Of a DNA stretch of 50,720 bases, positions 13,186 through 46,353 are shown piece by piece; positions within the stretch are counted from its first letter, which is position 1; the number at the start of each line of letters is the position of its first letter. Source of the DNA: Candidatus Bipolaricaulota bacterium (GTDB taxonomy: Bacteria; Bipolaricaulota; Bipolaricaulia; UBA7950; UBA9294). The notes beneath the pieces are model-generated. The model did no database searches and was not told the origin of the DNA. It saw only the letters and a list, made by a program, of their open reading frames with translations. A program made the translations under genes and the position numbers. The DNA lies in contig JAKLFO010000001.1 of NCBI GenBank assembly GCA_022711155.1, positions 1-50,720 on the forward strand. The letters are read 5' to 3'.

Positions 13186-13206
13186 ACGCGGGACGGCCGG
13201 GCTCTG

Positions 13207-13478: not shown

Positions 13479-14340
13479 CAACTTCATGCAGCTGAGGGTT
13501 CTTCGCTCCGGCGATGTCACCGTGCTTGGTCAAGACGCACTCCGCCTTGATCGCCATGAGCTCCTCGTATCGGTCGTCCTCGACCATGGCGACGATGCGC
13601 GCGATCGAGCTCTCCCCGTCGACGAACCGCCACGGGAAACACCCGATCACGGCGCGCTGATTGAGCAGGAGGTCGATGTCGCCGCCCAGGCACTCGGCGT
13701 GGATGATGCCGTGGCCGAACAGCTCGATGTGCATGAGCTGGTACTTGCCGGCGTCGAACCGCTCGGCAAGCGGCTGGCCGTACTTGGTGCGGAAGTGCTG
13801 ATCGGCCTCTTTGGCCTGACGCGGCATCCAGTCTCGGATGATCGTGTTCATCGGGTGGTCGGCCGATCCGCAGTCGACGCCGATCCAGCGGATCCTCTTC
13901 TCGCGGCACCACAGCGCGAACTCCCGGTCGGGGCCCGGGTGCTTGACCATGTAGCGAACCTCGTCGGCCGTCGGCTGGTCCCACCCGTAGTGGTGGTAGC
14001 CGGTGTGGAGGATGAGGATGTCGCCTTCCTTCACCTCGACGCGCTCCTCGATCATGTCGGGGGTGTAGATGTCGTAGTCGCCCACGACGTCCGACAAATC
14101 GACGACCACCCCTTCATGGACGAGGAAGTCCAGGCTGAGCTGGGCGATGTCCTTGCCCGGGGTGTAGAAGTGGATCTCGCCGTCGAGGTGCGTGCCCACG
14201 TGATTCGAGTGCGTCACGAGCTGGCCGTTCGCCCCGTTTGGCGCGAGGCGCTTGAAGTACTTCACCTGGAGCGGCTCGTAGGTCGGCCACGGCGGCGTCG
14301 CGATCGAGAGCGGGATTGTCAGATCGATCAGTTTCATCAT
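13468..14340 (-). CDS. Cyclase-family protein, a metal-dependent hydrolase resembling kynurenine formamidase.
   Basis: The HxGTHxDxxxH motif is present as HVGTHLDGEIHF. GGAGGGA lies just upstream of a tandem ATG ATG, so the start may be 14337. Confidence 0.85.
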   Translation of the reverse strand: MMKLIDLTIPLSIATPPWPTYEPLQVKYFKRLAPNGANGQLVTHSNHVGTHLDGEIHFYTPGKDIAQLSLDFLVHEGVVVDLSDVVGDYDIYTPDMIEERVEVKEGDILILHTGYHHYGWDQPTADEVRYMVKHPGPDREFALWCREKRIRWIGVDCGSADHPMNTIIRDWMPRQAKEADQHFRTKYGQPLAERFDAGKYQLMHIELFGHGIIHAECLGGDIDLLLNQRAVIGCFPWRFVDGESSIARIVAMVEDDRYEELMAIKAECVLTKHGDIAGAKNPQLHEVGRT

Positions 14341-14360
14341 TCCCTCCGTTACAGCCTTTC

Positions 14361-14578
14361 ACCGCAGAGCGCGCAGACCGCTGAGAAGGAGGCTCGAACG
14401 GGAACGGATCCTTTGGTCCGCGCGACGCGTTTTGTCGCCACCCTCATCCCCGCCCCCGCGCATCCGACCCCAGCTACTCTGACTCTGCGCACCCCACGAC
14501 GGCTCCTGCCTGCCAATTCCGTCCACGTCCGGCCTTTCGTCCCTCTCCCCCTCTGCGTTCCTCTGCGCGCTCTGCGGT
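14361..14578. repeat. A 17-bp perfect inverted-repeat pair bracketing almost the whole intergenic region.
   Basis: ACCGCAGAGCGCGCAGA at 14361-14377 is the exact reverse complement of TCTGCGCGCTCTGCGGT at 14562-14578. The 184-nt spacer is strongly C-rich on the + strand. Confidence 0.5.
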
Positions 14579-33332: not shown

Positions 33333-34574
33333 ATGAAGAGCATTCTCATCATCGCCGACGGCCTCGGCGGCCGACCGACCGACCAAGCCGGCAAGACGTG
33401 TCTCGAGGCCGCGCGAAAACCGAACCTGGACGGCCTGGCGGCGCAGGGTGCCGTAGGCCTCGTGGATCCGATCGGGCCGGGCATCCGCCCGGGCAGCGAC
33501 ACGGCCCACCTCTCGCTCCTCGGGTACAACCCGCGCGAGCTCTACACCGGGCGCGGTGTCTTCGAGTGCCTCGGAATCGGCCTCGACGTGCAGCCCGGCG
33601 ACATTTGCTTCCGAGCCAACTTCGCGACCGTGAAGGAGTCGGCCGGCGCGCTCCTCCTCGTAGACCGGCGCGCCGGGCGCATCGAGTCCGGCCAGCGAGA
33701 GCTCGAAGCGGCTCTCGACGGCATGAAGCTGAAGACGCCCGGCGTCGACGTCGCATTCCGCGCTTCCACCGAGCACCGCGGCGCGCTGCTCCTGCGCGGC
33801 AGCGAGCTGTCGCCGTACGTCGGCGAGACGGATCCCCACGAGACGGGGGCGGAGATCCGCTCCGCCGAGCCGATGGCGGAGGGACGGGCGGCGCGGCGCA
33901 CGGCCGACGCGGTGAACGAGCTGACGCGCAGGAGCTATGAGCTGCTGAAGGACCTGCCGCTCAACGTGGCGCGCGCGAAGGCCCACAAACTCCCAGCCAA
34001 CATCCTCCTCGTTCGCGGCGCCGCCGACTGCCCGCACATCCCCTCGATTCCCTCGATCTACGGCGTGCGCGGCGCAGTCATCGCCGGAGGCGCCTTGTAC
34101 CGCGGCGTGGCGCTCGCCTGTGGCCTCGAGTCGATCGAGGTCGAGGGAGCTACCGGCGGACTGGACACGAATCTGCGCGCCAAGGCGGCGGCCGCGCTCA
34201 AGGCGCTCGAGACGTACGACCTGGTGTTCGTTCACATCAAGGGAACCGACAACGCGGCGCACGACCATCAGGCGGCCGCCAAGACCGCGTTCATCGAGCG
34301 GATCGACGCGGAGTTCTTCGGCACGCTTCTCGGAGGCATCGACTGGAACACGACGCACGTCGCCTTCACCGGCGACCACACGACGGCCATCGACTACGGC
34401 GATCACACCGCGGACCCGGTTCCGGTCTTGTTCGCGGGTCCGAAGGTTCGCCGCGACGATGTCACGACGTTCGACGAGCGCGCGGCGGCTCGGGGCGGGC
34501 TCTTGCGCTTCAGCGGCCAGGTCCTGCCGACCTTGATGAGCTACGCCGACCGCTCGCCGAAGTACGGATCGTAG
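33333..34574 (+). CDS. apgM: Cofactor-independent phosphoglycerate mutase, archaeal type.
   Basis: The protein begins MKSILIIADGLGGRP and contains GSDTAHLSLLGY, HIKGTDNAAHD and FTGDHTT. GGGAGGGG lies upstream of the ATG. Confidence 0.88.
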   Translation: MKSILIIADGLGGRPTDQAGKTCLEAARKPNLDGLAAQGAVGLVDPIGPGIRPGSDTAHLSLLGYNPRELYTGRGVFECLGIGLDVQPGDICFRANFATVKESAGALLLVDRRAGRIESGQRELEAALDGMKLKTPGVDVAFRASTEHRGALLLRGSELSPYVGETDPHETGAEIRSAEPMAEGRAARRTADAVNELTRRSYELLKDLPLNVARAKAHKLPANILLVRGAADCPHIPSIPSIYGVRGAVIAGGALYRGVALACGLESIEVEGATGGLDTNLRAKAAAALKALETYDLVFVHIKGTDNAAHDHQAAAKTAFIERIDAEFFGTLLGGIDWNTTHVAFTGDHTTAIDYGDHTADPVPVLFAGPKVRRDDVTTFDERAAARGGLLRFSGQVLPTLMSYADRSPKYGS

Positions 34575-34585: not shown

Positions 34586-34954
34586 ATGCTCTTGCGCGAC
34601 GTGGCGAAGCTCGTGGAAGGCGACATCCTGTCGGGAGGGAACAACGGCGACCTCGTGATCGACCGGGCGTACGCCGTCGACCTCCTGTCCGACATCCTCG
34701 CCTTGACCGACGAGCGGACGACGCTCATCACCGGAACGATCAGTCCGCAGGTCCTCCGCGTAGCGGAGATCCTGAACGTCATCGCGATCATCTTCGTGCG
34801 CGGCAAGCGCCCGACGCCCGCCATGGTCGCGCACGCCGAGACCCTCAACATCCCGGTGGTCGCGACGAAGAAGACGATGTTCGAGACGTGCGGGCTCTTG
34901 TACGCCGACGGGGTGCGGGCGTGCAAGAACCGACCGGTGGAGACGATGGAGTGA
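34586..34954 (+). CDS. DRTGG domain protein.
   Basis: AYAVDLLSDILALTDERTTLITGTISPQVLRVAEILNVIAIIFVRG matches the DRTGG pattern. The gene starts 11 nt after the apgM stop. Confidence 0.8.
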   Translation: MLLRDVAKLVEGDILSGGNNGDLVIDRAYAVDLLSDILALTDERTTLITGTISPQVLRVAEILNVIAIIFVRGKRPTPAMVAHAETLNIPVVATKKTMFETCGLLYADGVRACKNRPVETME

Positions 34955-35403
34955 AGCAGTTCGTCCATCTCGTCAAGCCCCGTGACATCGAGCACGGCGG
35001 GATCGCGTCGGCGGAGATCAAGCGCGAGCTGCGCGAGTGGGGCGCCAGCGCGGCCGACGCGCGGCGCGCCGGGATCATCGCGTTCGAAGGCGAGATGAAC
35101 CTCATCGTCTACGCCGACCACGGCGGCACGATCCAGGTGACCTTGTCCCGCGAGTGGATTGAGATCCTCATCGCGGACGACGGCCCCGGGATCGGCGACA
35201 TCGACCTCGCCATGACGCCGGGATACTCGACCGCGCCGGCCTGGGCCACGAACCTCGGGTTCGGAGCCGGGATGGGGCTGCCCAACATGCAGAGGAGTTC
35301 CGACGAATTCGAGATGCACTCCCACGTAGGGCAGGGAACGCTGATCCGTTGTCGGATCGAGAGGAGAGGACATGACGCTGCGAGAACTGGCCAAGCTCCT
35401 TAG
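34951..35403 (+). CDS. Anti-sigma-factor-type serine kinase / GHKL ATPase (RsbW-like).
   Basis: The GTG start overlaps the previous stop as GTGA. DDGPGIGDIDLAMTPGYSTA...GFGAGMGLPNM are GHKL G1/G2-box-like motifs. Confidence 0.75.
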   Translation: MKQFVHLVKPRDIEHGGIASAEIKRELREWGASAADARRAGIIAFEGEMNLIVYADHGGTIQVTLSREWIEILIADDGPGIGDIDLAMTPGYSTAPAWATNLGFGAGMGLPNMQRSSDEFEMHSHVGQGTLIRCRIERRGHDAARTGQAP

Positions 35404-35716
35404 GTGGGACGTCCAGAGCGAGGGATCCGGACTGGACGAGGCGGTCCGTGGGGGGTACTGCGGTGACTTGCTCTCCCACGCCCTCGCCTCGGCCAAAGCG
35501 GGCGACGTGTGGATCACGATCCAGCACCACGCCAACGTCGTGGCCGTCGTTCAGGTCGCCAACCTGGCGGGCATCGTCCTCGCGTGCGGCGTCCGCGCGG
35601 CCGACGGCGTCGTGGAGCGCGCGAGGGAAGCGGGCGTCTCGGTCTTCTCCTCGCCGGACTCGGCCTTCGACCTCGCTGGGAAGGTACACCGCGCACTGTC
35701 CGCGGAGACGCGTTGA
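35372..35716 (+). CDS. Second DRTGG-like domain protein.
   Basis: GYCGDLLSHALASAKAGDVWITIQHHANVVAVVQVANLAGIVLACG is present. The gene overlaps the previous one by 32 nt. Confidence 0.65.
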   Translation: MTLRELAKLLRWDVQSEGSGLDEAVRGGYCGDLLSHALASAKAGDVWITIQHHANVVAVVQVANLAGIVLACGVRAADGVVERAREAGVSVFSSPDSAFDLAGKVHRALSAETR

Positions 35717-36471
35717 GGACGTACGTCGCCGATCTCCACATCCACACGTGCCTGTCGCCGTGCGCCGACCTGTCGATGTCGCCGCGCGCTATCGTCCGCG
35801 CGGCCGCGGAGCGCGGGATCGACCTCATCGCCGTCACGGACCACAACACCGCGCGCATGACCGATGTCGTGGCGCGCGAAGCAGCGCGTCAAGGAATCGC
35901 CTTCCTCTACGGCCTCGAACTGCAGACCCAGGAAGAGGTACACCTCCTGGCGTACTTCGACGCGTCCCCGCCGGCGCACGCCTTCGCGGACAAGATCTAC
36001 GCCCAACTCCCGGACCGACCGAACGTGCCAGAGGCCTTCGGCGATCAGGTCGCCGTCGACGACGCCGAGAAGATCGTCTACGTGGAGCCGCGCCTGCTCC
36101 TCAACTCGCTGCGCCTGGACTTCGAGACGGCCGTCGCGTGGATCACCGATGCTGGCGGCCTGGCCGTGCCGGCGCACGTCGACCGAGAGCCCTACGGCCT
36201 CATCACCCAACTCGGCTTCGTTCCCCCGGGGCTCGATCTTCCGCTCGCCGAGGCGGACGGAGACGAGCTCCCGGCCGCCTGCCACGACAGCCGGCTCGTG
36301 TGGAGCTCGGACTCCCACTGGCCGGAGGCCGTCGGCCGCCGCGTGACCCACTTCACCATGAACGCGCCGTCCGTCGCCGAACTGCGCCTCGCAGCGTCTG
36401 GAGCGGGAGGACGCACGCTGTCGGTCGAGCGACGCCTCTCGCCTGAGGCAGCATCCAGGAGGCGCACGTGA
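35713..36471 (+). CDS. PHP-domain phosphoesterase.
   Basis: YVADLHIHTCLSPCAD and LIAVTDHNT are present. The putative TTG start overlaps the previous stop as TTGA. The track ORF from 35509 is an out-of-frame extension. Confidence 0.75.
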   Translation: MRTYVADLHIHTCLSPCADLSMSPRAIVRAAAERGIDLIAVTDHNTARMTDVVAREAARQGIAFLYGLELQTQEEVHLLAYFDASPPAHAFADKIYAQLPDRPNVPEAFGDQVAVDDAEKIVYVEPRLLLNSLRLDFETAVAWITDAGGLAVPAHVDREPYGLITQLGFVPPGLDLPLAEADGDELPAACHDSRLVWSSDSHWPEAVGRRVTHFTMNAPSVAELRLAASGAGGRTLSVERRLSPEAASRRRT

Positions 36472-36998
36472 TCGAATCCCTGGACATGCACATCCTCGAC
36501 CTGTTCCAGAACGCCCTCGCGTCGGGGGCGTCCGAGGTGCTTCTCCGGCTCGAGTGCCCAAGCGACGAGAATCGGCTCACGATCGAGATGCGCGACAACG
36601 GTCGCGGGATGGACGCAGAGACGCTCGCCGCGGTCGAGCGCGGCTACTACTCGTCGAAGTGCGAACGCTGCGTCGGGCTCGGGCTCCCGCTCTTGCGCGC
36701 CACGGCCGAGCACTGCGGCGGCCAATTCGAGATCAAGAGCCGCCCCGGAGAAGGGACAACGGTCACGGCGACGATGCTGAGAGAGCACATCGACCTGCCG
36801 CCGTTCGAGAACGTGACCGAGACGTTGCTCACGCTCCTCGCCACTTCGGGAGATCGCCGCATCCGGCTCGCCGTCGACTGCGGGATCCCCTTCGAACTCG
36901 ACACAGACGAGATCGAGGCGGCGCTCGGAGACGTACCCCGGAGCCACCCCGACGTCATCGCGTTCCTGCGCGCCTTCCTGGCCGAGCGACTCGGATAA
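36468..36998 (+). CDS. Stand-alone histidine-kinase-like ATPase (HATPase_c) protein.
   Basis: The GTGA overlap gives the start. Motifs are EMRDNGRGMD, GLGLPLL and GEGTTV. There is no HisKA or sensor domain. Confidence 0.7.
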   Translation: MIESLDMHILDLFQNALASGASEVLLRLECPSDENRLTIEMRDNGRGMDAETLAAVERGYYSSKCERCVGLGLPLLRATAEHCGGQFEIKSRPGEGTTVTATMLREHIDLPPFENVTETLLTLLATSGDRRIRLAVDCGIPFELDTDEIEAALGDVPRSHPDVIAFLRAFLAERLG

Positions 36999-37128
36999 GT
37001 GCGGCGGAGCCGCTGCCGCAGCCCGATGGGACTCGACGGGCGGTCCAAGGTACCATTTCGAACCCGGCAGCCCGACGCACCGAGGGAATCCCGGGTAGAG
37101 AACACTGATAAGTGAGGTGGGTGGTGCG

Positions 37129-37686
37129 ATGGAACTCACGTCTTGTACGCCGCAGCAGGCGGCCGACATCCGGCGCATCCTGGACGCGGCGGCCGGCTCG
37201 CCGGGCCCTCTGATCCAAGTCCTTCACGCCGTCCAGGGCGTCGTCGGGTATCTTCCCGCGGACGTTCTGGACTACGTTGCCGATGCCCTCTACCTCCCGA
37301 AGAGCGAAGTCCACGGGGTAGCGACCTTCTACAACTTCTTCCGACTCGACCCCGCGGGCAAGCACACCGTCACGGTCTGCCTCGGGACCGCGTGCTATGT
37401 GAAGGGCGGTGCCAAGATCCTCGAACGCCTCAAGAAGGAGCTCGGCGTGGCGGAGGGAAGGACGACGGCCGACGGCCTGTTCACGCTCGACACCGCTCGC
37501 TGTTTCGGCGCATGCGGCCTGGCGCCGGTCATGACCGTCGACGAGGAGGTCTTCGGGCGCCTGAGCCCGACCAAGGCGCTGGCCATCCTCGAGAAGTATC
37601 GCTCGAGCACGGAGGACGAGACCGCCGGGTCGCGCGAGGTGACTCACACCGCCAAGGTGGCGAAGGGACGGAAGCATGAAGCTTGA
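37129..37686 (+). CDS. hoxE: NuoE/HoxE-like [2Fe-2S] thioredoxin-like subunit (copy 1).
   Basis: GAGGTGG lies upstream of the ATG at 37129. VTVCLGTACYVKG...ARCFGACGLAPVMTV retains all four cluster cysteines. Confidence 0.88.
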   Translation: MELTSCTPQQAADIRRILDAAAGSPGPLIQVLHAVQGVVGYLPADVLDYVADALYLPKSEVHGVATFYNFFRLDPAGKHTVTVCLGTACYVKGGAKILERLKKELGVAEGRTTADGLFTLDTARCFGACGLAPVMTVDEEVFGRLSPTKALAILEKYRSSTEDETAGSREVTHTAKVAKGRKHEA

Positions 37687-38050
37687 GGAACTGCGGCAGA
37701 TCCGCGAACGAGCGCAGTCGGACATGCGCCTGCGCGGTGGAGCGGTGCGCGTGAAGGTCGTCGTCGGCATGGGAACGTCCGGCATCGCCGCCGGCGCGCG
37801 CGGCGTCATCTCGGCGTTTCTCGAGGAGATCCAGAAGCGACGCCTGACCGACGTCGTCGTCACCCAGTCCGGCGAAAAGGGATTCGCGTCGCAGGAGCCC
37901 GTGGTCGAGATCGTCGAGCGGGACCGGCCGCGTGTCCTCTACGGGCACGTCGACCCGGCGGGGGCTCGCCGCATCGTCGCCGAGCACATCGTCAACGGCG
38001 CCGTCGTCGAGGACCTCGTCCTCGCGGTCCACGAGGCGGAGAAGGAGTAG
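37676..38050 (+). CDS. Thioredoxin-like [2Fe-2S] ferredoxin-fold protein with no cysteines (degenerate).
   Basis: VKVVVGMGTSGIAAGARGVISAFLEE...VVVTQSGEKGFASQEPVVEIV aligns with the CxxxxC...C...C ferredoxin module found in hydrogenase operons. This 124-aa protein contains no Cys. Confidence 0.75.
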   Translation: MKLEELRQIRERAQSDMRLRGGAVRVKVVVGMGTSGIAAGARGVISAFLEEIQKRRLTDVVVTQSGEKGFASQEPVVEIVERDRPRVLYGHVDPAGARRIVAEHIVNGAVVEDLVLAVHEAEKE

Positions 38051-38052
38051 GC

Positions 38053-41000
38053 GTGCCGAGTCGTCTTGAAGTCCTGGTCTGCGCTGGCGGCGCGTGCGTC
38101 TCTTCCCACAGCCGAGAGATGCGAGAGGAACTCGGGAAGCGGATCGACGCGCACGGGCTCGCCGAAGAGGTACGCATCATCGAAACGGGGTGCATGGGGC
38201 CGTGCGAGCACGGCCCGCTCGTCCTCGTCTACCCGGAAGGCGTGCTCTACAAGAGCGTCGCCGCCGCCGACGTCGACGAGATCGTGCGCGAGCACTTCCT
38301 GAAGGGCCGCGTCGTGTCGCGCCTCCTCTTCCGCTCCGAGGAGGCCGACCGGATCATTCGCGAGAAGCGCTCGATCCCGTTTTTCGAGAAGCAGATGAAG
38401 ATCGTCCTCGCCAACTGCGGGGCGATCGACCCCGAGTCCATCGACGAGTACATCGGCGCGAACGGCTACGAAGCGCTGGGGAAGGCCGTGACGTCCATGA
38501 CTCCGGACGAAGTGCTCGCGGAGGTCAAGGCGTCGGGGCTGCGCGGGCGCGGCGGCGCCGGCTTCTCCACCGGGATGAAGTGGCAGTTCGTCCGCGACGC
38601 CAAGTCGAGCGAGAAGATGGTCATCTGCAACGCCGACGAGGGAGACCCCGGCGCGTTCATGGACCGCGCGGTGCTCGAGGGCGACCCGCACACCATCATT
38701 GAGGGTATGACGATCGCCGCATACGCCGTGGGGGCGCAGCGCGGCTACGTCTACGTCCGAGCCGAGTACCCGCTGGCCATCGAGCGGCTGCAGATCGCCC
38801 TCAAGGCCGCGCGGGCCATGGGGCTCCTCGGGAAGAACATCCTTGAGACGGAGTTCTCGTTCGACATCGAAGTGCGCGTCGGCGCGGGCGCGTTCGTCTG
38901 CGGCGAGGAGACCGCGCTCATCGCCTCCATCGAGGGGCGGCGCGGCGTCCCGCGGACCCGCCCGCCGTACCCGGCGGCCTCCGGCCTGTGGAAGAAGCCG
39001 ACGCTCCTGAACAACGTCGAGACCTACGCCAACGTGCGGCACATCATCCTTCGCGGCGCCGCCTGGTTCTCCGCGATCGGCGTGGGCGAGAGCAAGGGAA
39101 CGAAGGTCTTCGCGCTGTCGGGGAACGTGCGCAACACGGGACTGGTCGAAGTTCCCATGGGGACGACGCTCGGCGAGGTCGTGTTCGACATCGGCGGCGG
39201 AGTGCCCAACGGGAAGCGACTGAAGGCTGTGCAGACGGGCGGGCCGTCCGGCGGCTGCATCCCCGTCGAGTACCTGAACACGCCCATCTCGTACGAGTCG
39301 CTGAAGCAGCTCGGAGCCATCATCGGATCCGGCGGACTCATCGTGCTCGACGAAGACACGTGTATGGTCAACCTCGCGCGGTACTTCATCGAGTTCACCG
39401 CGTCGGAGTCGTGCGGCCAGTGCACGCCGTGCCGCGTCGGCCTGGTGCGCATGCTCGAGATCCTCAACCGGATCACCGCCGGCGAGGGGACGATGGACGA
39501 TCTCGACAAGCTCGAGTCCCTCGCGACGGCCATCGGGAAGACGTCTCTCTGCGGATTGGGGCAGACGGCGCCGAACCCAGTCTTGAGCACGCTCAAGTAC
39601 TTCCGCGACGAGTACATCGCGCACATCCGCTACAAAACGTGTCCCGCCTCCGTCTGCGCCGCTATGTTCGTCGCGCCGTGCGAGTCGAGCTGCCCGGCGA
39701 ACGTCGACGTGCCCGCGTACGTGGGGCACCTGGCGAACGGCGATGTGGAGGAAGCGTTCCGCGTGCACATGGAGCACAACCCGCTGCCGGGAGTGTGCGG
39801 CCGCGTCTGCTATGCGTTCTGCGAGACGAAGTGCCAGCGCACCCAGGTTGACGAGCCGGTGGCGATCCGCGACCTGAAGCGGTTCATGGCCGACGCCGCG
39901 TCGGAGCACGGGCTGGGGATCGCGCCTCCGGCGAAGGTGAAGCCGGAGAAGGTCGTCATCGTCGGCGCGGGGCCGGCCGGCCTCTCGTGCGCGTACTTCC
40001 TGACGCGACTCGGCTACGCGCCGGTGATCCACGAGGCGCTGCCGATCGCCGGGGGCACGATGGCGACGGGAATCCCCTCGTATCGCCTTCCCCGCGGGAT
40101 CCTCGCCGCTGACGTCGAGCGCATCGAGAAGGCGGGCGTCGAGATCCAGCTCCTGACTCCCGTAGCGGACGTCGAGGAGCTGTTCTCGGCCGGCGCCCGT
40201 GCCGTGTTCGCGGCGACGGGAGCCATGGACGGCCAGACGCTGCGCCTGGGAACTCCGTCCCTTCCCGGCGTCTACGCCGGCGTCGACTTCCTCAAGGCCG
40301 TCAACCTCGAAGGCAAGACGGCGGTCGAGGGAGACGTGGTCGTCATCGGAGGCGGCAACTCGGCCATCGACTCCGCGCGCACGGCGCGACGCCTGGGAGC
40401 GAAGAGCGTGACCATCGTCTACCGCCGCGCCAAGGCCGACATGCCGGCGTCGCGGGAGGAGATCGCGGAGGCGATCGAGGAAGGAATCGAGGTCCGCGAC
40501 ATGACCGCGCCGCTCGGACTCGTCGGATCGAAGCGGGTTGAAGGGCTGCGCTGCAGCAAGATGGTGCCCGGCGAGTTCGACGCATCGGGCCGCCGGCGGC
40601 CGGTCGCCGAAGAGGGTTCGGACTTCGTCCTTCCGGCGTCCACCGTGCTCATCGCCGTCGGCCAGCAGGCGAACCTCGACCTGTTGACGAAGGCGGGCGC
40701 CGAGGCGACGGCCGACAAGAACATCGCTGTGGACGAAGCGTCGATGATGACGCGCCGCGCCGGCCTGTTCGCGGGCGGCGACGTGACGAGCGGCCCATCG
40801 ACGGTGGTCCAGGCGATCGCCGCCGGGCGACGTGCCGCCGCGGCCATCGATCGCTACCTCGGAGGGGACGGCATCATCGTCCGCGAGGCGCGCGTCGAAG
40901 TGGCGTCGCGCTACGACGAGAGCGAGTACGCGAAGGAGCGCGAGCGAGCGGTGCCGCCGCTGGCCGAAGTCGAGGACCGCGTGGGATCGTTCGCCGAGGT

Positions 41001-41142
41001 CAGGGGTTGCTTCACGTGCGCGCAAGCCACGGAAGAAGCTCGGCGCTGCTTGCACTGCGACCGAGCCCAGGACGAGGAGTCGGGGGTTCGCGAGGCCGGA
41101 GGGGCTGTCGCATCGAGGGCCGGCGCGCTCCCCGGCGACTAG
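38053..41142 (+). CDS. NuoF/HoxF-like FMN/NADH subunit fused to a GltD/NfnB-like NADPH-dependent FAD oxidoreductase.
   Basis: AAGGAG lies 7 nt upstream of the GTG. The N-terminal 2Fe-2S domain reads CAGGAC...GCMGPCEHGP. The NuoF core has GLRGRGGAGFSTGMKW, CNADEGDPGAF and ESCGQCTPCR...SLCGLGQ. From about nt 39640 the sequence reads CPASVC...CESSCP...GRVCYAFCETKC, then VVIVGAGPAGLSCA, VVVIGGGNSAIDSA and FAGGDV. Confidence 0.9.
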   Translation: MPSRLEVLVCAGGACVSSHSREMREELGKRIDAHGLAEEVRIIETGCMGPCEHGPLVLVYPEGVLYKSVAAADVDEIVREHFLKGRVVSRLLFRSEEADRIIREKRSIPFFEKQMKIVLANCGAIDPESIDEYIGANGYEALGKAVTSMTPDEVLAEVKASGLRGRGGAGFSTGMKWQFVRDAKSSEKMVICNADEGDPGAFMDRAVLEGDPHTIIEGMTIAAYAVGAQRGYVYVRAEYPLAIERLQIALKAARAMGLLGKNILETEFSFDIEVRVGAGAFVCGEETALIASIEGRRGVPRTRPPYPAASGLWKKPTLLNNVETYANVRHIILRGAAWFSAIGVGESKGTKVFALSGNVRNTGLVEVPMGTTLGEVVFDIGGGVPNGKRLKAVQTGGPSGGCIPVEYLNTPISYESLKQLGAIIGSGGLIVLDEDTCMVNLARYFIEFTASESCGQCTPCRVGLVRMLEILNRITAGEGTMDDLDKLESLATAIGKTSLCGLGQTAPNPVLSTLKYFRDEYIAHIRYKTCPASVCAAMFVAPCESSCPANVDVPAYVGHLANGDVEEAFRVHMEHNPLPGVCGRVCYAFCETKCQRTQVDEPVAIRDLKRFMADAASEHGLGIAPPAKVKPEKVVIVGAGPAGLSCAYFLTRLGYAPVIHEALPIAGGTMATGIPSYRLPRGILAADVERIEKAGVEIQLLTPVADVEELFSAGARAVFAATGAMDGQTLRLGTPSLPGVYAGVDFLKAVNLEGKTAVEGDVVVIGGGNSAIDSARTARRLGAKSVTIVYRRAKADMPASREEIAEAIEEGIEVRDMTAPLGLVGSKRVEGLRCSKMVPGEFDASGRRRPVAEEGSDFVLPASTVLIAVGQQANLDLLTKAGAEATADKNIAVDEASMMTRRAGLFAGGDVTSGPSTVVQAIAAGRRAAAAIDRYLGGDGIIVREARVEVASRYDESEYAKERERAVPPLAEVEDRVGSFAEVRGCFTCAQATEEARRCLHCDRAQDEESGVREAGGAVASRAGALPGD

Positions 41143-41202
41143 CGCCGGTTCGGAAGGGCCTGCCGCCGCAAGGCGGAAGAGACACAGGATCGGGAGGCGG
41201 AA

Positions 41203-41901
41203 GTGGAACGGATTACGGTGAAGATCGACGGCCGGGAGATCGTGACGAGCCCCGGCCGGACGATTCTCGAGGTGGCGGTCGAGCACGGGATACGCATCCC
41301 CACGCTGTGCCATCTCGAGGGCCTGTCTGACGTGGGCGCATGCCGGCTGTGCATCGTCGATGTGCGGGGCCAACTCGTGACGTCGTGCACGACGCGCGTC
41401 GCCGACAAGATGGAAGTGCTGACCGGGACGGATGCGGTTCGCGCCTATCGGCGAACGATCCTCGAGCTTCTGTTCGCGGAAGGAAACCACGTGTGCGCGT
41501 TCTGCGTCTCCAACGGGGGATGCGAGCTCCAGGATCTCGCCTGCGAGCTGGAGATGCACTCGGTCACCGTGCCGTACGCGTACCCTCGCCACCGCGTGGA
41601 CGCCACGCATCCGCGCTTCCTGATCGACCGCGACCGCTGCGTGCTCTGCGGCCGCTGCGTGCGCGCCTGCGGCGAAGTCGAGGGAGCGCGAACGTGGAAC
41701 TTCGCCGAGCGCGGCAGCCAAGCGCGGGTGATCACGGACCTCGATGTGGATTGGGGCACGGCGGCGTCCTGCACGAGCTGCGGCAAGTGCGTCGAGGTCT
41801 GCCCGACGGGGGCCATCGTCCGCAAGGGCGAGAGTAACGGGGAAATGCGCAAGAAGCCGGAGGTCATCACGCGCCTCAAGGAGAGGAGGACACATGGCTA
41901 A
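41203..41901 (+). CDS. hoxU: HoxU-like Fe-S subunit resembling the NuoG N-terminus (2Fe-2S plus 4Fe-4S clusters).
   Basis: Motifs are CHLEGLSDVGACRLCIV, CVLCGRCVRAC and CTSCGKCVEVCP. Confidence 0.88.
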   Translation: MERITVKIDGREIVTSPGRTILEVAVEHGIRIPTLCHLEGLSDVGACRLCIVDVRGQLVTSCTTRVADKMEVLTGTDAVRAYRRTILELLFAEGNHVCAFCVSNGGCELQDLACELEMHSVTVPYAYPRHRVDATHPRFLIDRDRCVLCGRCVRACGEVEGARTWNFAERGSQARVITDLDVDWGTAASCTSCGKCVEVCPTGAIVRKGESNGEMRKKPEVITRLKERRTHG

Positions 41902-42430
41902 GGTTCGAGTGGCCACGATGTGGTTCAGCGGGTGCGCTGGATGCCACATGTCACTCCTTGACATCGACGAGACGCTGATCGATCTCGCAGGCATGATCAC
42001 TCTCTTCAACAGCCCGATCACCGATCTCAAGGTGTTCCCGGAAGAAGGGGTGGACGTGACCCTGATCGAGGGAGCGGTCGGGAACGAGGAGCAGCTGCAT
42101 CTCGCCCGCACGGCGCGCCAGAAGTCGAAGATCCTGATCGCGCTCGGTGACTGCGCCGTGACGGGCAACGTGCCCGCGCTGCGCAACGGGATGGACCCGG
42201 ACGAGATGATCGCCAACATCTACGGGGACAAGGTCACGTCGAACGGCGCTCTCCCGTACGAGGCGGTGCCGCACCTGCTCGGGCGCGTGCGCCCTCTCGC
42301 CGAGGTCGTTCACGTCGACTACTTCCTGCACGGGTGTCCTCCGCCGGCCGGGCTCATCGCCAAGGCCGTGCTGGCCCTCGTCGCGGGCAAGACGCCGGAA
42401 CTCGCCGGCCCTGACCTCAAGTTTGGATAG
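41894..42430 (+). CDS. hoxY: [NiFe]-hydrogenase small subunit, short group-3 type.
   Basis: MAKVRVATMWFSGCAGCHMSLLD, LGDCAV and FLHGCPP are present. The gene overlaps hoxU by 8 nt. Confidence 0.9.
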   Translation: MAKVRVATMWFSGCAGCHMSLLDIDETLIDLAGMITLFNSPITDLKVFPEEGVDVTLIEGAVGNEEQLHLARTARQKSKILIALGDCAVTGNVPALRNGMDPDEMIANIYGDKVTSNGALPYEAVPHLLGRVRPLAEVVHVDYFLHGCPPPAGLIAKAVLALVAGKTPELAGPDLKFG

Positions 42431-42442
42431 CGGAGGAGCAAG

Positions 42443-43870
42443 ATGGAAAGGCAGATTCATATAGAGCCAGTCACGCGAATCGAGGGACACGGGAAGATCA
42501 CCGTGTTCCTTGACGCCAAGGGCGACGTGCGCGACGCCCAGTTCCACGTGACCGAGCTGAGAGGTTTCGAGCAGTTCTGTGTCGGCCGGACGCTGTGGGA
42601 GATGCCCGGCCTCACGGCCCGCATCTGCGGGATCTGCCCGGTGAGCCACATCCTCGCGTCGGCCAAGGCGTGCGACGCGATCCTCGCCGTCCAGATCCCT
42701 CCTGCGGCCACGCTCCTTCGCCGGCTGATGAACGCCGGACAGCTCGTCCAGTCGCACGCGCTCAGCTACTTCTACCTGTCCGCGCCGGACTTCCTGCTCG
42801 GCTGGGACTCGGACCCGGCGACGCGCAACGTCATCGGGCTCGTCGCGGCCGACCCCGTGCTGGCCCGCAAGGGGATCCGGCTGCGCGCGTTCGGCCAGGA
42901 AATCATCGATCGACTCGGCGGCAAGCGAATCCACCCCGGCTGGGCCGTGCCGGGCGGCGTGAACCAGGCGCTGCCGGAGACCGACCGCGCGTGGATGCTC
43001 GAGCGCCTTCCCGAAGCTCTTGCAACGACCCAGGAGGCATTGGCCCTGTTCAAGTCGACGTTTGGCGACGTCGAGGACCGGGACGTCCTGACCGACTTCC
43101 CGAGCATGTACATGGGACTCGTTCGTCCGGATGGAGCGTGGGAGCACTACGCCGGCGTCCTGCGGATCGTCGACTCGAAGGGCAAAGTCGTCGAGCCGGG
43201 CTACGATCCGGCCCGCTACTACGAGATCATCCAGGAGGCGTCGGAGCCCTGGACCTACCTCAAGTTCCCGCACTACGTCCCGAAGGGGTACCCGAAAGGC
43301 ATGTACCGCGTCGGGCCGCTGGGGCGCGTCAACGCCTGCGACCACTTCGCGACGCCGCTCGCCCAGGCGGAGCTCGAGGAGTTCCGCGAGCGCTCGGGCG
43401 GCCGCTCGGGACGCGTGTTCGACTACCACTACGCGCGTCTGATCGAGATCCTCGCGTCCGTCGAGGAGATCGGCGAGCTACTGGCCGACGACCGCATCAC
43501 GTCGACCGAGATCCGCGCCCAGGCGGGGATCAACGTGCGCGAAGGCGTCGGCGTGCATGAAGCGCCGCGCGGAACGCTGATCCACCACTATTGGGTCGAC
43601 GGAAACGGCGTGATCGAGAAACTCAACCTCATCGTGTCGACCGGGCACAACAACCTGGCGATGAATCGGGCCGTCCGCGAGATCGCCAAGACGTACATCA
43701 AGAAGGGCAAGGTGAGCGAGGGGATGCTGAACCGCATCGAAGGCGGCATCCGCGCCTACGACCCCTGCCTCTCCTGCTCGGTCCATGCCGTGGGGAAGAT
43801 GCCGCTCGCCGTCGAGATCGTGGATGCGCAGGGCGACGTCGTGACGACGCTCGCGCGCGACGATCGGTAG
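42443..43870 (+). CDS. hoxH: [NiFe]-hydrogenase large subunit.
   Basis: The N-terminal nickel-binding motif is [10 protein letters not shown]. The C-terminal motif DPCLSCSVH is followed by a 27-aa tail that would be removed during maturation. Confidence 0.93.
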
Positions 43871-43874
43871 AGAG

Positions 43875-44312
43875 ATGGATCTCGTGGTGGGCGTCGGAAA
43901 CGAACTGCGGAGTGACGACGGAGTCGGAGCGCGCATCGTGCGAGCGCTGCCGGCGCAACCGGGCGTCGAGACGGACGTCGTGCACCAACTCACGTTCGAT
44001 CTCACCGACGCGGTCGGCCGCGCCCGGCGCGTCTTGTTCGTCGATGCGCACGCTGAAGAGACGCACCTGCGCCTCTCTCGCGTGTCTCCGCACGGCGCGG
44101 TCCAAGGGATCGGTCACGCCCTGGCTCCAGAGGCCCTGCTTGCCTGGACGTCGGCTGCCTGCGGCCGTGCGCCCGACGCGTGGGTGCTCAGCGTCCCGGC
44201 GCAGTCATTCGACATCGGCGAGGAACTCAGTCCGGACGTCGTGCGAGGCCTGCCGGCAGCAGAGCAGGCCGTGCTCGATTGGCTTAGAGACCCCGAACCG
44301 AGCGATGAGTAG
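43875..44312 (+). CDS. hoxW: Hydrogenase maturation endopeptidase.
   Basis: The GVGNELRSDDGVG motif is present. The gene lies immediately downstream of hoxH. Confidence 0.85.
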   Translation: MDLVVGVGNELRSDDGVGARIVRALPAQPGVETDVVHQLTFDLTDAVGRARRVLFVDAHAEETHLRLSRVSPHGAVQGIGHALAPEALLAWTSAACGRAPDAWVLSVPAQSFDIGEELSPDVVRGLPAAEQAVLDWLRDPEPSDE

Positions 44313-44324
44313 TTGGGAGGACGC

Positions 44325-44786
44325 ATGAACGAGCTCTTGAAGAAGTACCCGCCGGCGCCGGAGTCTCTTCTCGACATCCTGCACGATCTGCAGGCCGCGG
44401 AGCCGCGGCACTATCTCACCCGCGACGCGCTGCGCGCCGCCGCCGAGTACGTGGACGTGCCGCTATCGGACGTCGTGAGCACTGCCACGTTCTACTCGAT
44501 GTACAGCCTGTCGCCGCGAGGGCGGCACATCGTCCGGGTCTGCGAATCGCCCCCGTGCCAGCTCGTGGGCGCCGATTCGCTGATCGAGATCCTGACTGCG
44601 CATCTCAGCGTCGCCGTCGGCGGGACGACCGTGGACGGAGCGTTCACGCTCGAGACGACGAGCTGCCTCGGCGTCTGTGGCGTCGCGCCGGCGATGATGG
44701 TGGACGACGAGCTCTACGGCAATCTGACCAAGGAGAAGGTGCTCGGCGTGATCGCCGACGTGAGGGGGAGAGATGCCGCGAGCTAG
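44325..44786 (+). CDS. NuoE/HoxE-like [2Fe-2S] subunit (copy 2).
   Basis: GGGAGG lies upstream of the ATG at 44325. VRVCESPPCQLVG...TSCLGVCGVAPAMMV retains all four cysteines. Confidence 0.85.
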   Translation: MNELLKKYPPAPESLLDILHDLQAAEPRHYLTRDALRAAAEYVDVPLSDVVSTATFYSMYSLSPRGRHIVRVCESPPCQLVGADSLIEILTAHLSVAVGGTTVDGAFTLETTSCLGVCGVAPAMMVDDELYGNLTKEKVLGVIADVRGRDAAS

Positions 44787-46353
44787 AGGGCACGTCCTGA
44801 TCGCCGTCAACGAGGAAGCCCTGCTCGCCGGAGCGAGGCAGGTCGGCCGCGCGCTCGGCGAGCACCTGGCGAAAGAGGGTCTGGCAGAGGAAATCCGAGT
44901 CATCGAGACCGGAGACGTCGGGGTTGCCGGCCGCGGCGTTGTGCTCGTCGTGTACCCCGACGGCGTGCGGTACGGCAACGTGACGCCCCACGATGTCGGG
45001 GAGATCGTGCGCGAACATCTGCTCAAAGGGCGCCCGGTTGAGCGGCTGCGACTCGCCGCGGGAGCAGCGCGTGGCGCGTGGTCCGTGGAGCGCCAAGTGA
45101 GAATCGTGCTCGAGAACTGCGGCAGGATCGACCCGGAGAGCCTGGATGAAGCGATCGCCGCGGGTGCCTACGAGGCCATCGCGCGTCTTCTCGAAACCAA
45201 GCGTCCGCCGGCCGACGTCATCGCCGAAGTGAAGCGCTCGGGCCTGCGCGGCCGCGGCGGCGCCGGATTTCCCACCGGACTCAAGTGGTCTTTCACGGCC
45301 CCGGGCGACAGGAAGTACGTCGTCTGCAACGCCGATGAAGGAGAGCCAGGAACGTTCAAGGATCGCCTGATCCTCGAGGGGGATCCGCACCGGCTGCTCG
45401 AGGGCATGATGATCGCCGCGTACGCGGTGGGCGCAAGGCAGGGATACGTGTACGTCCGGGGAGAGTACGGACTCTCGATTCGGCGCCTGCAGAAAGCGAT
45501 CGACGATGCCCGCGCCGCCGGACTCCTCGGCGAGCGGGTCCTCGAGTCGCCCTTCTCGTTCGACGTCGAGATCAAGAAGGGCGCCGGCGCGTACGTGTGC
45601 GGCGAGGAGACCTCGCTCATCGAGTCCATCGAGGGCAAGCGCGGCTACCCGCGGCTCAAGCCGCCGTATCCAGGCGCGGCCGGACTGTGGAAGAAGCCGA
45701 CCGTCGTGAATAACGTCGAGACGCTCGCCAACGTCCCGCCCATCCTCTTGCGCGGCGCCGACTGGTTCCGCGGCTTCGGAACGGAGAAGAGCCCGGGGAC
45801 GAAGGTCTACACGATCCTCGGCCACGTGCGAAACCCCGGCCTGATCGAGGTCGAGATGGGAACTCCCTTGCGCACGATCCTCGACGAGTACGGCGGCGGC
45901 GTCCGCGACGGCAAGCGGTTCAAGGCCGCCCTTCTGGGAGGCGCGGCCGGCGCCGTGATCGGGGCGCAGGGCCTTGACGTGCCGATGGACTTCGACGGCC
46001 CCAAGGAGTACGCGGCCGTTCTCGGCTCGGGCGCGATTCTCGTCCTCGATGAGGACTCCTCGATCGTCGAGCTCCTGCACGGCATCCTCCGCTTCTTCCG
46101 TCACGAGTCCTGCGGCCAGTGCGCGCCGTGCCGCGGCGGCACCGTCGCCCTGGTAGAGCTGTCCGAGCGCATTCGCTCCGGATGCGGCACGCGGGACGAC
46201 CTGGACCGCATGGTCCACATCGCGAAGGCGATGCAGGCCGCGTCGCTCTGTCCGCTCGGCCAGTCGCCCATCCTGCCCGTGCAGACGGCGATCAACACGT
46301 TCCACGGCGAGTTCGAGGCGCGCTTCGCGGAGCGCGGCGACTGCAAGGCATAG
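44773..46353 (+). CDS. NuoF/HoxF-like FMN/NADH subunit (copy 2) with a cysteine-less N-terminal ferredoxin-fold domain.
   Basis: GLRGRGGAGFPTGLKW, CNADEGEPGTF and ESCGQCAPCR...SLCPLGQ are present. The N-terminus (VLIAVNEEALLAGA...ETGDVGVAGRGVVLVVYP) aligns to copy 1 with all four cysteines substituted. Confidence 0.9.
   Translation: MPRARGHVLIAVNEEALLAGARQVGRALGEHLAKEGLAEEIRVIETGDVGVAGRGVVLVVYPDGVRYGNVTPHDVGEIVREHLLKGRPVERLRLAAGAARGAWSVERQVRIVLENCGRIDPESLDEAIAAGAYEAIARLLETKRPPADVIAEVKRSGLRGRGGAGFPTGLKWSFTAPGDRKYVVCNADEGEPGTFKDRLILEGDPHRLLEGMMIAAYAVGARQGYVYVRGEYGLSIRRLQKAIDDARAAGLLGERVLESPFSFDVEIKKGAGAYVCGEETSLIESIEGKRGYPRLKPPYPGAAGLWKKPTVVNNVETLANVPPILLRGADWFRGFGTEKSPGTKVYTILGHVRNPGLIEVEMGTPLRTILDEYGGGVRDGKRFKAALLGGAAGAVIGAQGLDVPMDFDGPKEYAAVLGSGAILVLDEDSSIVELLHGILRFFRHESCGQCAPCRGGTVALVELSERIRSGCGTRDDLDRMVHIAKAMQAASLCPLGQSPILPVQTAINTFHGEFEARFAERGDCKA

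Follow-up and report, generated by a model that had tools for sequence, protein, structure and literature searches.

The window analysed here, a stretch of 50,720 nucleotides from a Candidatus Bipolaricaulota bacterium (GenBank assembly GCA_022711155.1, contig JAKLFO010000001.1, positions 1 to 50,720), carries at positions 34586–46353 of its + strand a 14-gene block that encodes one [NiFe]-hydrogenase core, HoxUYH, together with two different pairs of NuoE and NuoF diaphorase subunits. The operon is an uncharacterised variant of the Bfu-type enzymes, neither a new family nor rare in sequence databases. We give an even chance to the reading that the single core runs in two gears: one through NuoE2–NuoF2, which would use NADH only, and one through NuoE1 and a NuoF1::GltD fusion, which would use NADH and NADPH together, with NADP(H) in the place of ferredoxin. 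The genes on which this reading turns are listed below, with the Pfam or NCBIfam matches of their products (aa, amino acids; FMN, flavin mononucleotide).

37117..37686, + strand: NuoE1, a HydC (BfuC)-like [2Fe-2S] subunit (Pfam 2Fe-2S_thioredx, 1.9e-48)
38053..41142, + strand: NuoF1::GltD, 1029 aa (Complex1_51K, 1.5e-49; NADH_4Fe-4S, 3.4e-35; Fer4_20, 7e-24; Pyr_redox_2, 6.8e-28)
41203..41901, + strand: HoxU, a short BfuA-like conduit of 232 aa (Pfam Fer2_4, 1.5e-16; NADH-G_4Fe-4S_3 and Fer4 families)
41891..42430, + strand: HoxY, a short [NiFe] small subunit of ~179 aa with the proximal cluster only (Pfam Oxidored_q6, 1e-26)
42443..43870, + strand: HoxH, a group 3 [NiFe] large subunit of 475 aa (Pfam NiFeSe_Hases, 1.2e-28)
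43875..44312, + strand: HoxW-type maturation endopeptidase, 145 aa (NCBIfam TIGR00072, 65.7 bits against a cut-off of 47.45 bits)
44313..44786, + strand: NuoE2, a [2Fe-2S] subunit (Pfam 2Fe-2S_thioredx, 2.5e-44)
44773..46353, + strand: NuoF2, 526 aa, with an FMN/NADH site, one [4Fe-4S] cluster and a cysteine-less N-terminal domain (Pfam Complex1_51K, 1.4e-52)

An earlier note on this DNA had described a tight same-strand series of 14 genes, and every one of them was recovered at its coordinates on the + strand by open reading frame (ORF) listing, translation, Pfam scan and homology. Pfam domains were matched in 12 of the 14 proteins, and the remaining ones were placed by NCBIfam or by homology to entries of the PDB; the HoxW protein has no Pfam match at E 0.01. 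Between nuoE1 and nuoF2, neighbouring genes overlap or are spaced by 0–12 nt, except for 60 nt ahead of hoxU, and a gap of 118–130 nt separates nuoE1 from the gene before it, which encodes the second HATPase_c protein of the block. No credible terminator was found between the genes (2 weak sites lie within hoxW, against 5.7 expected by chance). In addition, the 118–130 nt and 60-nt gaps contain no promoter or terminator pattern above chance and no Rfam match, so that an RNA element or terminator in them was rejected. In comparison with locus L006 (loci outside the window are numbered with L), the ratio of nonsynonymous to synonymous substitution rates (dN/dS) is 0.09–0.29 for all 14 genes, and it is 0.133 for F1::GltD and for F2 alike. 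The note had also asked whether the gene order is conserved: it is found again in two independent assemblies, L006 (HoxH 89% identity) and L171 (76%). Given these ratios and the conserved synteny, pseudogenes or chance ORFs of GC-rich DNA were rejected. HypC and HypD signature motifs are absent from every frame of the window, which bears out this part of the statement that hyp genes are missing.

The two NuoF subunits are of different kinds. Bifurcating and non-bifurcating beta subunits can be separated by three criteria (Losey et al., 2020), which a 2026 preprint on Hox re-uses: A/E-x-M versus T/S-x-K/S/A, Phe versus Tyr in GAGA(F/Y)xCGEE, and the presence versus absence of GGPSG. NuoF1 has the bifurcating form of all three (AFM, Phe in GAGAFVCGEE, and GGPSG) and is, on these motifs, a bifurcating-type module; NuoF2 has the opposite form of all three (TFK, Tyr in GAGAY, and GGAAG) and can by the same signatures be classed as a non-bifurcating-type flavoprotein. 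The first rule was followed by 85/85 F1-like and 12/12 F2-like locus sequences. The typing drew on a residue alignment with the HydB of Acetomicrobium mobile, an alignment of 17 fusions and a ligand table of 97 sequences, all of which agree. In NuoF2 the N-terminal cysteines, the ligands of the B2/Zn site and the C-terminal cluster domain are all missing (ligand pattern AADA-S-CCC-R-C-R). Its nearest sequences are bifurcating HydB proteins (7T2R_B, 552 bits), and it is therefore a stripped-down HydB derivative and not an import from complex I or FdsB. The nuoE2 gene abuts hoxW and overlaps nuoF2. Hence the two FMN/NADH modules of the earlier note are both present, but they are not equivalent.

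NuoF1 consists of two halves. Residues 1 to ~540 form a HydB/BfuB core with an N-terminal [2Fe-2S] cluster, the FMN/NADH site, a [4Fe-4S] cluster and the B2/Zn site; among PDB entries this core is best matched by the HydB of A. mobile (7T2R_B, 767 bits), with 291 bits for the Hox structure 5XF9. Residues ~540–1003 form a circularly permuted GltD domain with two [4Fe-4S] clusters, flavin adenine dinucleotide (FAD) and an NADPH site. Across the 17 aligned fusions, the N-terminal [2Fe-2S] cysteines C10, C15, C47 and C51 are invariant, as are C437, H524, C530, C535, K609, C999 and C1002 and the ligands of the [4Fe-4S] cluster near FMN (C454, C457, C460 and C500). The B2/Zn site is made up of C437, T475, H524, C530 and C535, which correspond to C438, C/T476, H525, C531 and C536 in A. 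mobile. The nature of this site is disputed: it is a [2Fe-2S] cluster according to one group and a Zn hinge according to another (in T. maritima). NuoE1 has the four cysteines of a CxxxxC...CxxxC motif and co-varies with F1 across loci.

The GltD domain begins right after the B2/Zn ligands, at the place of the ferredoxin-type C-terminal domain of HydB, which has been proposed as the ferredoxin-binding site; NuoF1 has no such domain and carries there a Fer4_20 domain followed by FAD and NADPH sites. This exact positional match suggests that NADP(H) probably replaces ferredoxin and does not supplement it. The best PDB matches of the GltD half are 9BOV_A (353 bits), the NfnA of NfnABC (9N5U_A, 344 bits), StnC (8OH5_C, 317 bits), NfnB (4YLF_B, 292 bits) and 5JCA_L (247 bits). 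As in StnC and 9BOV_A, it is permuted relative to NfnB, with the EEARRCLHCD segment at its C-terminal end, and the RCLHCD tail aligns with residues ~560–566 of StnC. The residue that corresponds to K170 of StnC, beside or ligating the FAD-proximal cluster, is a lysine (the invariant K609), whereas NfnB has a glutamate there, and the NADPH motif GGGNSAID...VYRR...DMPA is present. In StnC, this version of GltD has been shown to act as an entry site for NADPH that does not bifurcate. By homology, we infer that the FAD of the fusion acts as an NADP(H) dehydrogenase site, wired through the two [4Fe-4S] clusters to the low-potential side of the Bfu core. The three nucleotide sites and three flavin sites that the earlier note had counted are intact by motif. 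In the C-terminal tail of NuoF1 (window 40900–41142), the last ~25 residues, past RCLHCD, are unconserved and of low complexity.

The hydrogenase core shows the same affinities. HoxH, in whose translation the motifs [10 protein letters not shown] and DPCLSCSVH were read, scores 518 bits with the large subunit of A. mobile (7T2R_D), 423 with 5XF9_D and 393 with MvhA; its best NCBIfam match is VhuA, at 404 bits, below the cut-off of that family. HoxY scores 158 bits with MvhG, 135 with the HydS of A. mobile and 124 with HoxY. HoxU has by motif one [2Fe-2S] and three [4Fe-4S] clusters, one of them His-ligated (HxxxCxxCxxxxxC is kept), and aligns only with residues 1–209 of the 692-aa HydA of A. 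mobile (7T2R_A, 202 bits; 135 bits with the HoxU 5XF9_B). In these comparisons, the block, with its Hox-sized HoxU, stands nearer to the Bfu enzymes than to classical Hox. This agrees with the likeness to Bfu-type and Nfn/Stn enzymes that had been pointed out before, since HoxH, NuoF1 and HoxU all score best with the NiFe-HydABCSL of A. mobile and GltD with 9BOV_A, NfnA and StnC. The description of a non-canonical HoxEFUYH layout also stands: there are two NuoEF pairs, one F is fused to GltD, and the order is E1-X-F1::GltD-U-Y-H-W-E2-F2. The contrast that had been drawn with a simple NAD-reducing Hox holds insofar as the block is unlike Hox, but its baseline is outdated, as the 2026 preprint reports that the HoxEFUYH of Synechocystis itself bifurcates with NAD and ferredoxin.

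Among characterised enzymes, the electron-bifurcating NiFe-HydABCSL of A. mobile (Bfu type 3; 7T2R/7T30) is the best solved-structure match for HoxH, the NuoF1 core and HoxU. Both share a HydC/HydB-like core with the N-terminal [2Fe-2S], the [4Fe-4S] and the Cys/Thr(Cys)/His/Cys/Cys site, a short small subunit, and an operon with HisK-, HydD- and protease-type genes. However, the HydA of A. mobile has 692 aa, with a degenerate H-cluster domain and clusters A1–A5, against the 232 aa of HoxU; its HydB ends in a ferredoxin-type domain with two [4Fe-4S] clusters, where F1 has GltD with FAD and NADPH; and it has no second NuoEF pair. The Stn/Nfn-Bfu enzymes (StnABC 8OH5; NfnABC 9N5U, 9BOV) have the same permuted GltD, with the lysine at K170 and VYRR, on a HydBC-type bifurcating core. 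In them, GltD is inserted in a NuoG-like A subunit, NADPH acts as mid-potential donor, the ferredoxin domain of HydB is retained and there is no hydrogenase unit, whereas in the window GltD sits on the C-terminus of the B subunit and a [NiFe] unit on the A-side. NfnSL/NfnAB similarly has a GltD-type subunit with two [4Fe-4S] clusters, FAD and an NADPH site, but the window block lacks an NfnS/NfnA partner (FAD and [2Fe-2S]), its domain is permuted, and it has lysine for the glutamate of NfnB.

NuoF2 has the non-bifurcating signatures of the NADH-dependent Syntrophus aciditrophicus HydAB and Syntrophomonas wolfei Hyd1ABC (Losey et al., 2020) and likewise lacks the extra Fe-S ligands. These are [FeFe] enzymes, whereas NuoF2 serves a [NiFe] core and its gene follows that of the protease (U-Y-H-W-E-F); in contrast to them, it still has a degenerate, cysteine-less N-terminal domain. 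Group 3d HoxEFUYH (Hydrogenophilus 5XF9, Synechocystis) resembles the window in the sizes and cluster motifs of HoxU, HoxY and HoxH, in HoxW and in the NuoE/NuoF diaphorase, but it has one NuoEF pair and the order hoxEFUYH, against two pairs, another order and the GltD fusion here. Moreover, the HoxF of related E-F-U-Y-H loci is of the bifurcating type by motif, which the constant partner F2 of the window is not. In the archaeal group F hybrid [FeFe]/[NiFe] hydrogenases (Greening et al., Cell 2024), a HydB with a glutamate-synthase-like domain is found beside a group 3 [NiFe] enzyme; there, however, [FeFe] HydA is fused to the NiFe small subunit, a single HydBC is present without a second NuoEF, and no biochemical test has been made. 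The authors of that study assumed that HydB's "glutamate synthase (GltA) domain" binds ferredoxin.

In the survey of the Bfu family, the C-terminal ferredoxin-type domain IPR017896 was the selection criterion for BfuB, and fusions or glutamate synthase are not mentioned (Schut et al., 2022). Because BfuB was defined by this domain, the fusions probably fell outside the survey. Compared with the Bfu definition, in which NAD(H), ferredoxin and a third substrate are also used in tight coupling, NuoF1/NuoE1 has FMN/NADH with the B1 [4Fe-4S] cluster, the B2 ligands, and the B5 and C1 [2Fe-2S] clusters, and lacks the B3/B4 domain. In the literature, in which subscription journals were incompletely covered, a NuoF/HydB–GltD fusion was mentioned only in the remark of the Cell 2024 paper, no biochemical study of it was found, and nothing relevant was found on a second NuoEF/HydBC pair.

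The comparison of the same locus in relatives separates a constant from a variable part. Named HoxH relatives at 86, 83, 71 and 70% identity are metagenome-assembled genomes (MAGs) of Candidatus Bipolaricaulota or Acetothermia. In the Bipolaricaulota relatives, the locus is flanked by a phosphoglycerate-mutase (PGM)-like gene on the one hand and by IMPDH/adenylosuccinate lyase (ASL) on the other, and the following layouts were found (in brackets, HoxH identity to the window). X124 is the 124-aa protein encoded between nuoE1 and nuoF1, and the cassette is the set of DRTGG, GHKL and PHP genes upstream of nuoE1.

Cassette, E1, X124, F1::GltD, U-Y-H-W and E2-F2: the window, L006 (89%), L171 (76%)
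The same layout with a ferredoxin-type F1 of 599–601 aa: L170 (86%), L168 (75%)
X124, U-Y-H-W and E2-F2 only: L172 (74%), L088/L087 (72%), L169 (71%)
U-Y-H-W and E2-F2 only: L167 (86%)

The more distant L061 (HoxH 61%, PGM-like gene upstream) also has the cassette, E1, F1 and E2F2. U-Y-H-W-E2-F2, and with it nuoE2, is present in every layout, in four of them without E1/F1, and is therefore the invariant, self-sufficient core. The cassette accompanies E1/F1 in five of five layouts and is absent from the four of four without E1/F1, and L061 is a sixth case in which it is present. Between the window and L170, HoxU is 88% identical, HoxH 86.5% and F2 84%, but E1 only 54%, X124 58% and the F1 core 68%, whereas identity to the GltD-type locus L171 is 72–81% for everything. 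An in-situ swap of the C-terminal part between GltD- and ferredoxin-type F1 was therefore rejected, as the whole E1-X124-F1 set lies at 54–68% against 84–88% for the core. On these layouts and identities, the cassette and E1/X124/F1 are an optional, exchangeable add-on that evolves as its own unit; at this locus it is always found directly upstream of hoxU and never elsewhere. The proposal of the earlier note that the core is served by two modules is upheld in that both are encoded, but E2F2 is the constant partner and E1/F1::GltD is optional.

In relatives without the add-on, NuoF2 often has only 418–426 aa and has lost the cysteine-less N-terminal domain (L167:12336-13616, L172:12327-13586, L088:12327-13583), and L169 retains a NuoF2 of 521 aa. 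L172, L088 and L169 have kept a free-standing X124 upstream of hoxU; L167 has not. In L168, NuoE2–NuoF2 is followed (13938-18831) by a 903-aa FdhA, a formate/nitrite transporter (FocA), FdhD and a molybdenum-cofactor gene. This locus encodes a NiFe unit and a formate dehydrogenase (FDH) unit together with a Bfu module of the ferredoxin type and a NuoEF of the non-bifurcating type, and it could be a shared-diaphorase H2/formate system.

HoxH relatives at 52–60% identity (soil and peat metagenomes, L089–L166) lie mostly in plain E-F-U-Y-H-W clusters. Nearly all of their HoxF proteins have the bifurcating signatures AFM, Phe and GGPSG and the N-terminal Cys4, and about half have the Cys/x/His/Cys/Cys site, though without a C-terminal ferredoxin domain; these motifs fit the 2026 report of a bifurcating Hox. 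The non-bifurcating F2 as constant partner is a peculiarity of the Bipolaricaulota clade.

More generally, the fusion is widespread. A protein search gave more than 115 clusters of full-length NuoF::GltD fusions of ~1000–1030 aa at 54% identity or more. In a genome census of 80 loci, with one genome per species, about 46 have a full-length fusion, with E1–F1::GltD as the only NuoEF, in more than 15 phyla. These include Desulfobacterota, Chloroflexota, Verrucomicrobiota, Spirochaetota, Bacillota, Acidobacteriota, Planctomycetota, Omnitrophota, Armatimonadota, Nitrospirota, Gemmatimonadota, Bacteroidota and a Promethearchaeota MAG. The catalytic neighbour is [FeFe] HydA in ~17 loci and FdhA in at least 11; in four (L015, L047, L048 and L037) it is a NiFe unit. 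As the sole NuoEF beside HydA, FdhA or a NiFe unit, F1::GltD is likely to serve these catalytic partners. One example from a cultured bacterium is Thermanaeromonas toyohensis, with the order NuoE-HATPase-119 aa-NuoF::GltD-HydA. A long A subunit is encoded in some other NiFe loci with F1::GltD (L015, L047, L151 and L152). The Asgard contig L039 (Promethearchaeota Loki_b31 MAG, ~10001-13003) carries NuoE-NuoF::GltD followed by a HoxU-like gene (F core 53% identity), which indicates that the fusion crosses the domain boundary.

Pairs of unlike NuoEF modules also recur. A bifurcating-type E1/F1 and a non-bifurcating E2/F2 are found with one FDH unit in L005 (a spirochaete) and L052 (Clostridia), with one [FeFe] unit in L031 (Verrucomicrobiota), L071 (Cloacimonetes) and L080 (Caldisericota), and with one NiFe unit in the bipolaricaulote L061. 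The combination of bifurcating and non-bifurcating NuoEF per single catalytic unit is thus found repeatedly, in three classes of enzyme. In L007 and L019, a separate HydA accompanies each of the two modules, that of E2F2 type and that of F1::GltD type.

Two further loci have unusual gene sets. L037 (a Balneolales MAG, 3784-10933) encodes a fusion of a NiFe small subunit with [FeFe] HydA, NuoE, NuoF::GltD, a HoxU-like protein and a divergent NiFe large subunit, with an ordinary F-U-Y-H-W cluster next after it; the set resembles the archaeal "group F hybrid" hydrogenase (Cell 2024), here in a bacterium. L047 (an Anaerolineales MAG, 1-17210) has two NuoE-NuoF::GltD systems in tandem, one with a long HydA-like protein and NiFe small subunit, large subunit and protease, and the other with FdhA.

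We propose the following scheme. The first layer, HoxU-Y-H, HoxW and NuoE2–NuoF2, would be a cytoplasmic group 3 [NiFe]-hydrogenase with a non-bifurcating, NADH-only diaphorase. The second layer, made up of the cassette, NuoE1, X124 and NuoF1::GltD, would be a Bfu-type bifurcating flavin module whose ferredoxin end has been replaced by a Stn-type GltD. Both modules would feed HoxUYH, either in alternative assemblies or within a dimer whose protomers are linked by HoxU. Through E2F2 the reaction would be NADH + H+ <-> H2 + NAD+. Through E1/F1::GltD it would be NADH + NADPH + 2H+ <-> 2 H2 + NAD+ + NADP+. This con/bifurcation would place NADP(H) at the ferredoxin position, and in it the Bfu core may link H2 with NAD(H) at the FMN and with NADP(H) at the FAD of GltD. 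For a fermenter in a digester, H2 evolution by confurcation would be the physiological direction. The cofactors predicted by motif are the [NiFe] site, one [4Fe-4S] in HoxY, a [2Fe-2S] each in E1 and E2, FMN and [4Fe-4S] in F2, and FMN, [2Fe-2S], [4Fe-4S], the B2/Zn site, two [4Fe-4S] and FAD in F1. From gene content, ligand and signature motifs, homologies, compaction, purifying selection and the modular pattern in relatives, all of which are observed, we infer the binding of the modules to HoxU, the substrates, the coupling and the direction.

A structural precedent for pairing through HoxU is provided by T. maritima HydABC, whose protomers are joined electronically by HydA's His-ligated [4Fe-4S] cluster at ~9 Å; HoxU keeps the His-ligated motif. 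By our own estimate from textbook potentials, NADH (~-280 mV) and NADPH (~-380 mV) together have a mean of ~-330 mV and an equilibrium H2 partial pressure (pH2) of ~150 Pa, compared with ~3 Pa for NADH alone (~-280 mV) and ~0.15 bar for NADH plus ferredoxin. A value of ~150 Pa would be sensible for a digester fermenter.

Several points weigh against this scheme. A NuoG/HoxU-type subunit has one canonical NuoF docking site, we know of no Bfu core with NADP(H) on its low-potential branch, and for both modules it is gene order that suggests the association with HoxU. An uncoupled NADH path in one complex would short-circuit bifurcation unless it were regulated, and a horizontally exchangeable add-on also fits an autonomous enzyme. 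How FMN is wired to the GltD clusters is uncertain because B2 is read either as [2Fe-2S] or as a Zn hinge. In the A. mobile dimer, the pentamers are more than 40 Å apart electronically, and the sole paper that mentions a HydB fusion (Cell 2024) guesses that ferredoxin binds there. A stronger form of the proposal, in which HoxUYH, E2F2 and E1/X124/F1::GltD would form one ferredoxin-independent bi/confurcating supercomplex, with NADP(H) as the low-potential branch and E2F2 as a regulated by-pass or "clutch", seems to us rather unlikely. A role of E2F2 as a stand-in for NfnS beside the GltD FAD is disfavoured, as E2F2 is found just as well beside a ferredoxin-type F1 or with no F1 at all.

Three other explanations were considered. 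It is possible, although we think it improbable, that GltD adds an NADP(H) site while ferredoxin still docks at the distal [4Fe-4S] cluster of GltD, as in NfnSL, so that the enzyme would link four substrates, H2, NAD, NADP and ferredoxin. The GltD of the NfnB/NfnL type, to which the domain is homologous (4YLF_B and 5JCA_L, scores above), has two [4Fe-4S] clusters that lead to ferredoxin, and the ferredoxin-type F1 at the same locus in sister lineages implies that ferredoxin coupling is relevant in the clade. However, the window GltD is of the Stn/Nfn-Bfu kind, permuted and with Lys instead of Glu, and in StnC this domain is a plain NADPH entry. In Stn, ferredoxin binds at the HydB-like C-terminal domain, which F1 is without, and no separate ferredoxin-type domain is left in F1.

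We hold it to be quite improbable that the operon encodes two enzymes, namely an NADH-linked hydrogenase (HoxUYH with E2F2) and a stand-alone, BfuA-less ("type 4") NADH/NADPH oxidoreductase or transhydrogenase (E1/X124/F1::GltD). The relatives that have U-Y-H-W-E2-F2 without E1/F1 (L167, L172, L088 and L169) speak for such a division, since they show a self-sufficient core; so do the exchange of the add-on as one unit, the assignment of a separate HydA to each kind of module in L007 and L019, and the description of BfuBC cores without BfuA (Schut et al.). On the other hand, F1::GltD as sole NuoEF beside HydA, FdhA or NiFe in ~46 loci implies that its normal role is that of the diaphorase of a catalytic partner, and at this locus the add-on is always inserted directly upstream of hoxU. 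In addition, F1 keeps the [4Fe-4S] cluster that passes electrons to a NuoG-like subunit, and NADH->NADP+ transfer alone needs no bifurcating core.

An ordinary group 3d Hox with duplicated diaphorase genes and no new function is very improbable and, on PDB scores and F1/F2 motifs, essentially excluded: the Hox-like sizes and motifs of HoxU, HoxY and HoxH, the plain E-F-U-Y-H-W clusters of most HoxH relatives at 52–60% identity and the HoxEFUHY listed for a published Acetothermia genome fit it, but F1 and F2 are only ~51% identical, differ at all diagnostic sites and each belong to a family conserved across phyla, hence did not arise by recent duplication, F1 includes a GltD domain of 490 aa, purifying selection is equal on both modules, and the nearest structural relatives are Bfu enzymes.

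If the supercomplex form of the proposal were correct, the pairing of NuoEF modules of both kinds, bifurcating and non-bifurcating, on one unit would amount to a design principle of [NiFe], [FeFe] and FDH Bfu enzymes that has gone unrecognised. The mechanism of Bfu enzymes is still argued with respect to the role of B2/Zn, the route of the low-potential electron and the place of ferredoxin binding. The fusion is a natural experiment in which the ferredoxin-binding domain has been exchanged for an NADPH/FAD domain, in more than 15 phyla and with three kinds of catalytic partner. In close relatives, the Bipolaricaulota locus exists in three states (core alone, with a ferredoxin-type module, and with an NADPH-type module), which makes it testable whether a Bfu core drives NADP+ instead of ferredoxin reduction and what role the second, non-bifurcating NuoEF plays. 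The H2 thresholds of syntrophs, fermenters and digesters would have to be modelled anew, with ~150 Pa (NADH plus NADPH) versus ~3 Pa (NADH). Genome papers that name such clusters simply "HoxEFUYH" would need correcting. One published digester Acetothermia (Bipolaricaulis) genome annotates its hydrogenase as "Hox E,F,U,H,Y", which is probably a cluster of this kind.

The remaining genes of the block are the five of the upstream cassette and X124.

34586..34954, + strand: DRTGG protein 1, 122 aa (Pfam DRTGG, E 4.5e-5, 23.7 bits, under the 25.2-bit cut-off)
34888..35403, + strand: GHKL (HATPase_c) protein 1, SpoIIAB-like (Pfam HATPase_c, 2.2e-9)
35372..35716, + strand: DRTGG protein 2, 114 aa, conserved in L006 (Pfam DRTGG, 1.5e-5, exactly at the cut-off)
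35698..36471, + strand: PHP phosphoesterase-like protein, ~252–257 aa (Pfam PHP, 5.7e-9; PHP_C, 1.6e-3)
36468..36998, + strand: GHKL (HATPase_c) protein 2 (Pfam HATPase_c, 2.6e-14)
37676..38050, + strand: X124, a 124-aa cysteine-less, thioredoxin-like ferredoxin-fold protein (no Pfam match)

DRTGG protein 1 has a dN/dS of 0.21 against L006, and its homologues open the same cassette in many Bfu operons. GHKL protein 1 also matches the NCBIfam anti-sigma F factor (4e-12, below the cut-off); its true start is probably near 34951, giving 150 aa as in the Joint Genome Institute (JGI) call on contig L001. For the PHP gene, the JGI call begins at 35713, and other loci also have PHP as a member of the cassette. 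GHKL protein 2 occupies the slot in the gene order that HisK has in the A. mobile operon; although that operon encodes HisK, HydD and HydP, the purified A. mobile holoenzyme is without them. X124 is homologous to the N-terminal [2Fe-2S] domain of BfuB/HydB (9N5U_B (NfnB), residues 7–93, E 2e-14; 7T2R_B, E 1e-7) and, judging from this homology, is probably the HydD-type small protein of HydABC operons. Its gene sits between E1/HATPase and F1 in dozens of Bfu operons, and the order E1-HATPase-X124-F1 is repeated in many HydABC operons. The DRTGG/GHKL/PHP cassette and X124 are usual companions of canonical [FeFe] HydABC operons (L056–L086) and nothing peculiar to this locus. The cassette is a probable regulator of the E1/F1 add-on.

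A 1426-aa antisense ORF (37939–42219, - strand) across nuoF1::gltD and hoxU is an artefact of the 68% G+C content, and many further long antisense ORFs in the window are likewise artefacts and not genes. An 18-kb stretch of the window is 99.9–100% identical to the JGI anaerobic-digester contig L001. In comparison with window 35615–35638, this contig has ~46–47 extra bases at 3150-3171, apparently from a short tandem duplication; they fall in the second DRTGG gene and disrupt its frame, either as an assembly difference or as a natural frameshift variant. Directly upstream of the block (window 33333–34574) lies the gene for a cofactor-independent phosphoglycerate-mutase-like protein (Metalloenzyme and PhosphMutase), which holds this place in all Bipolaricaulota relatives, even in the distant L061 (58% identity); plain synteny or a functional link could account for it.

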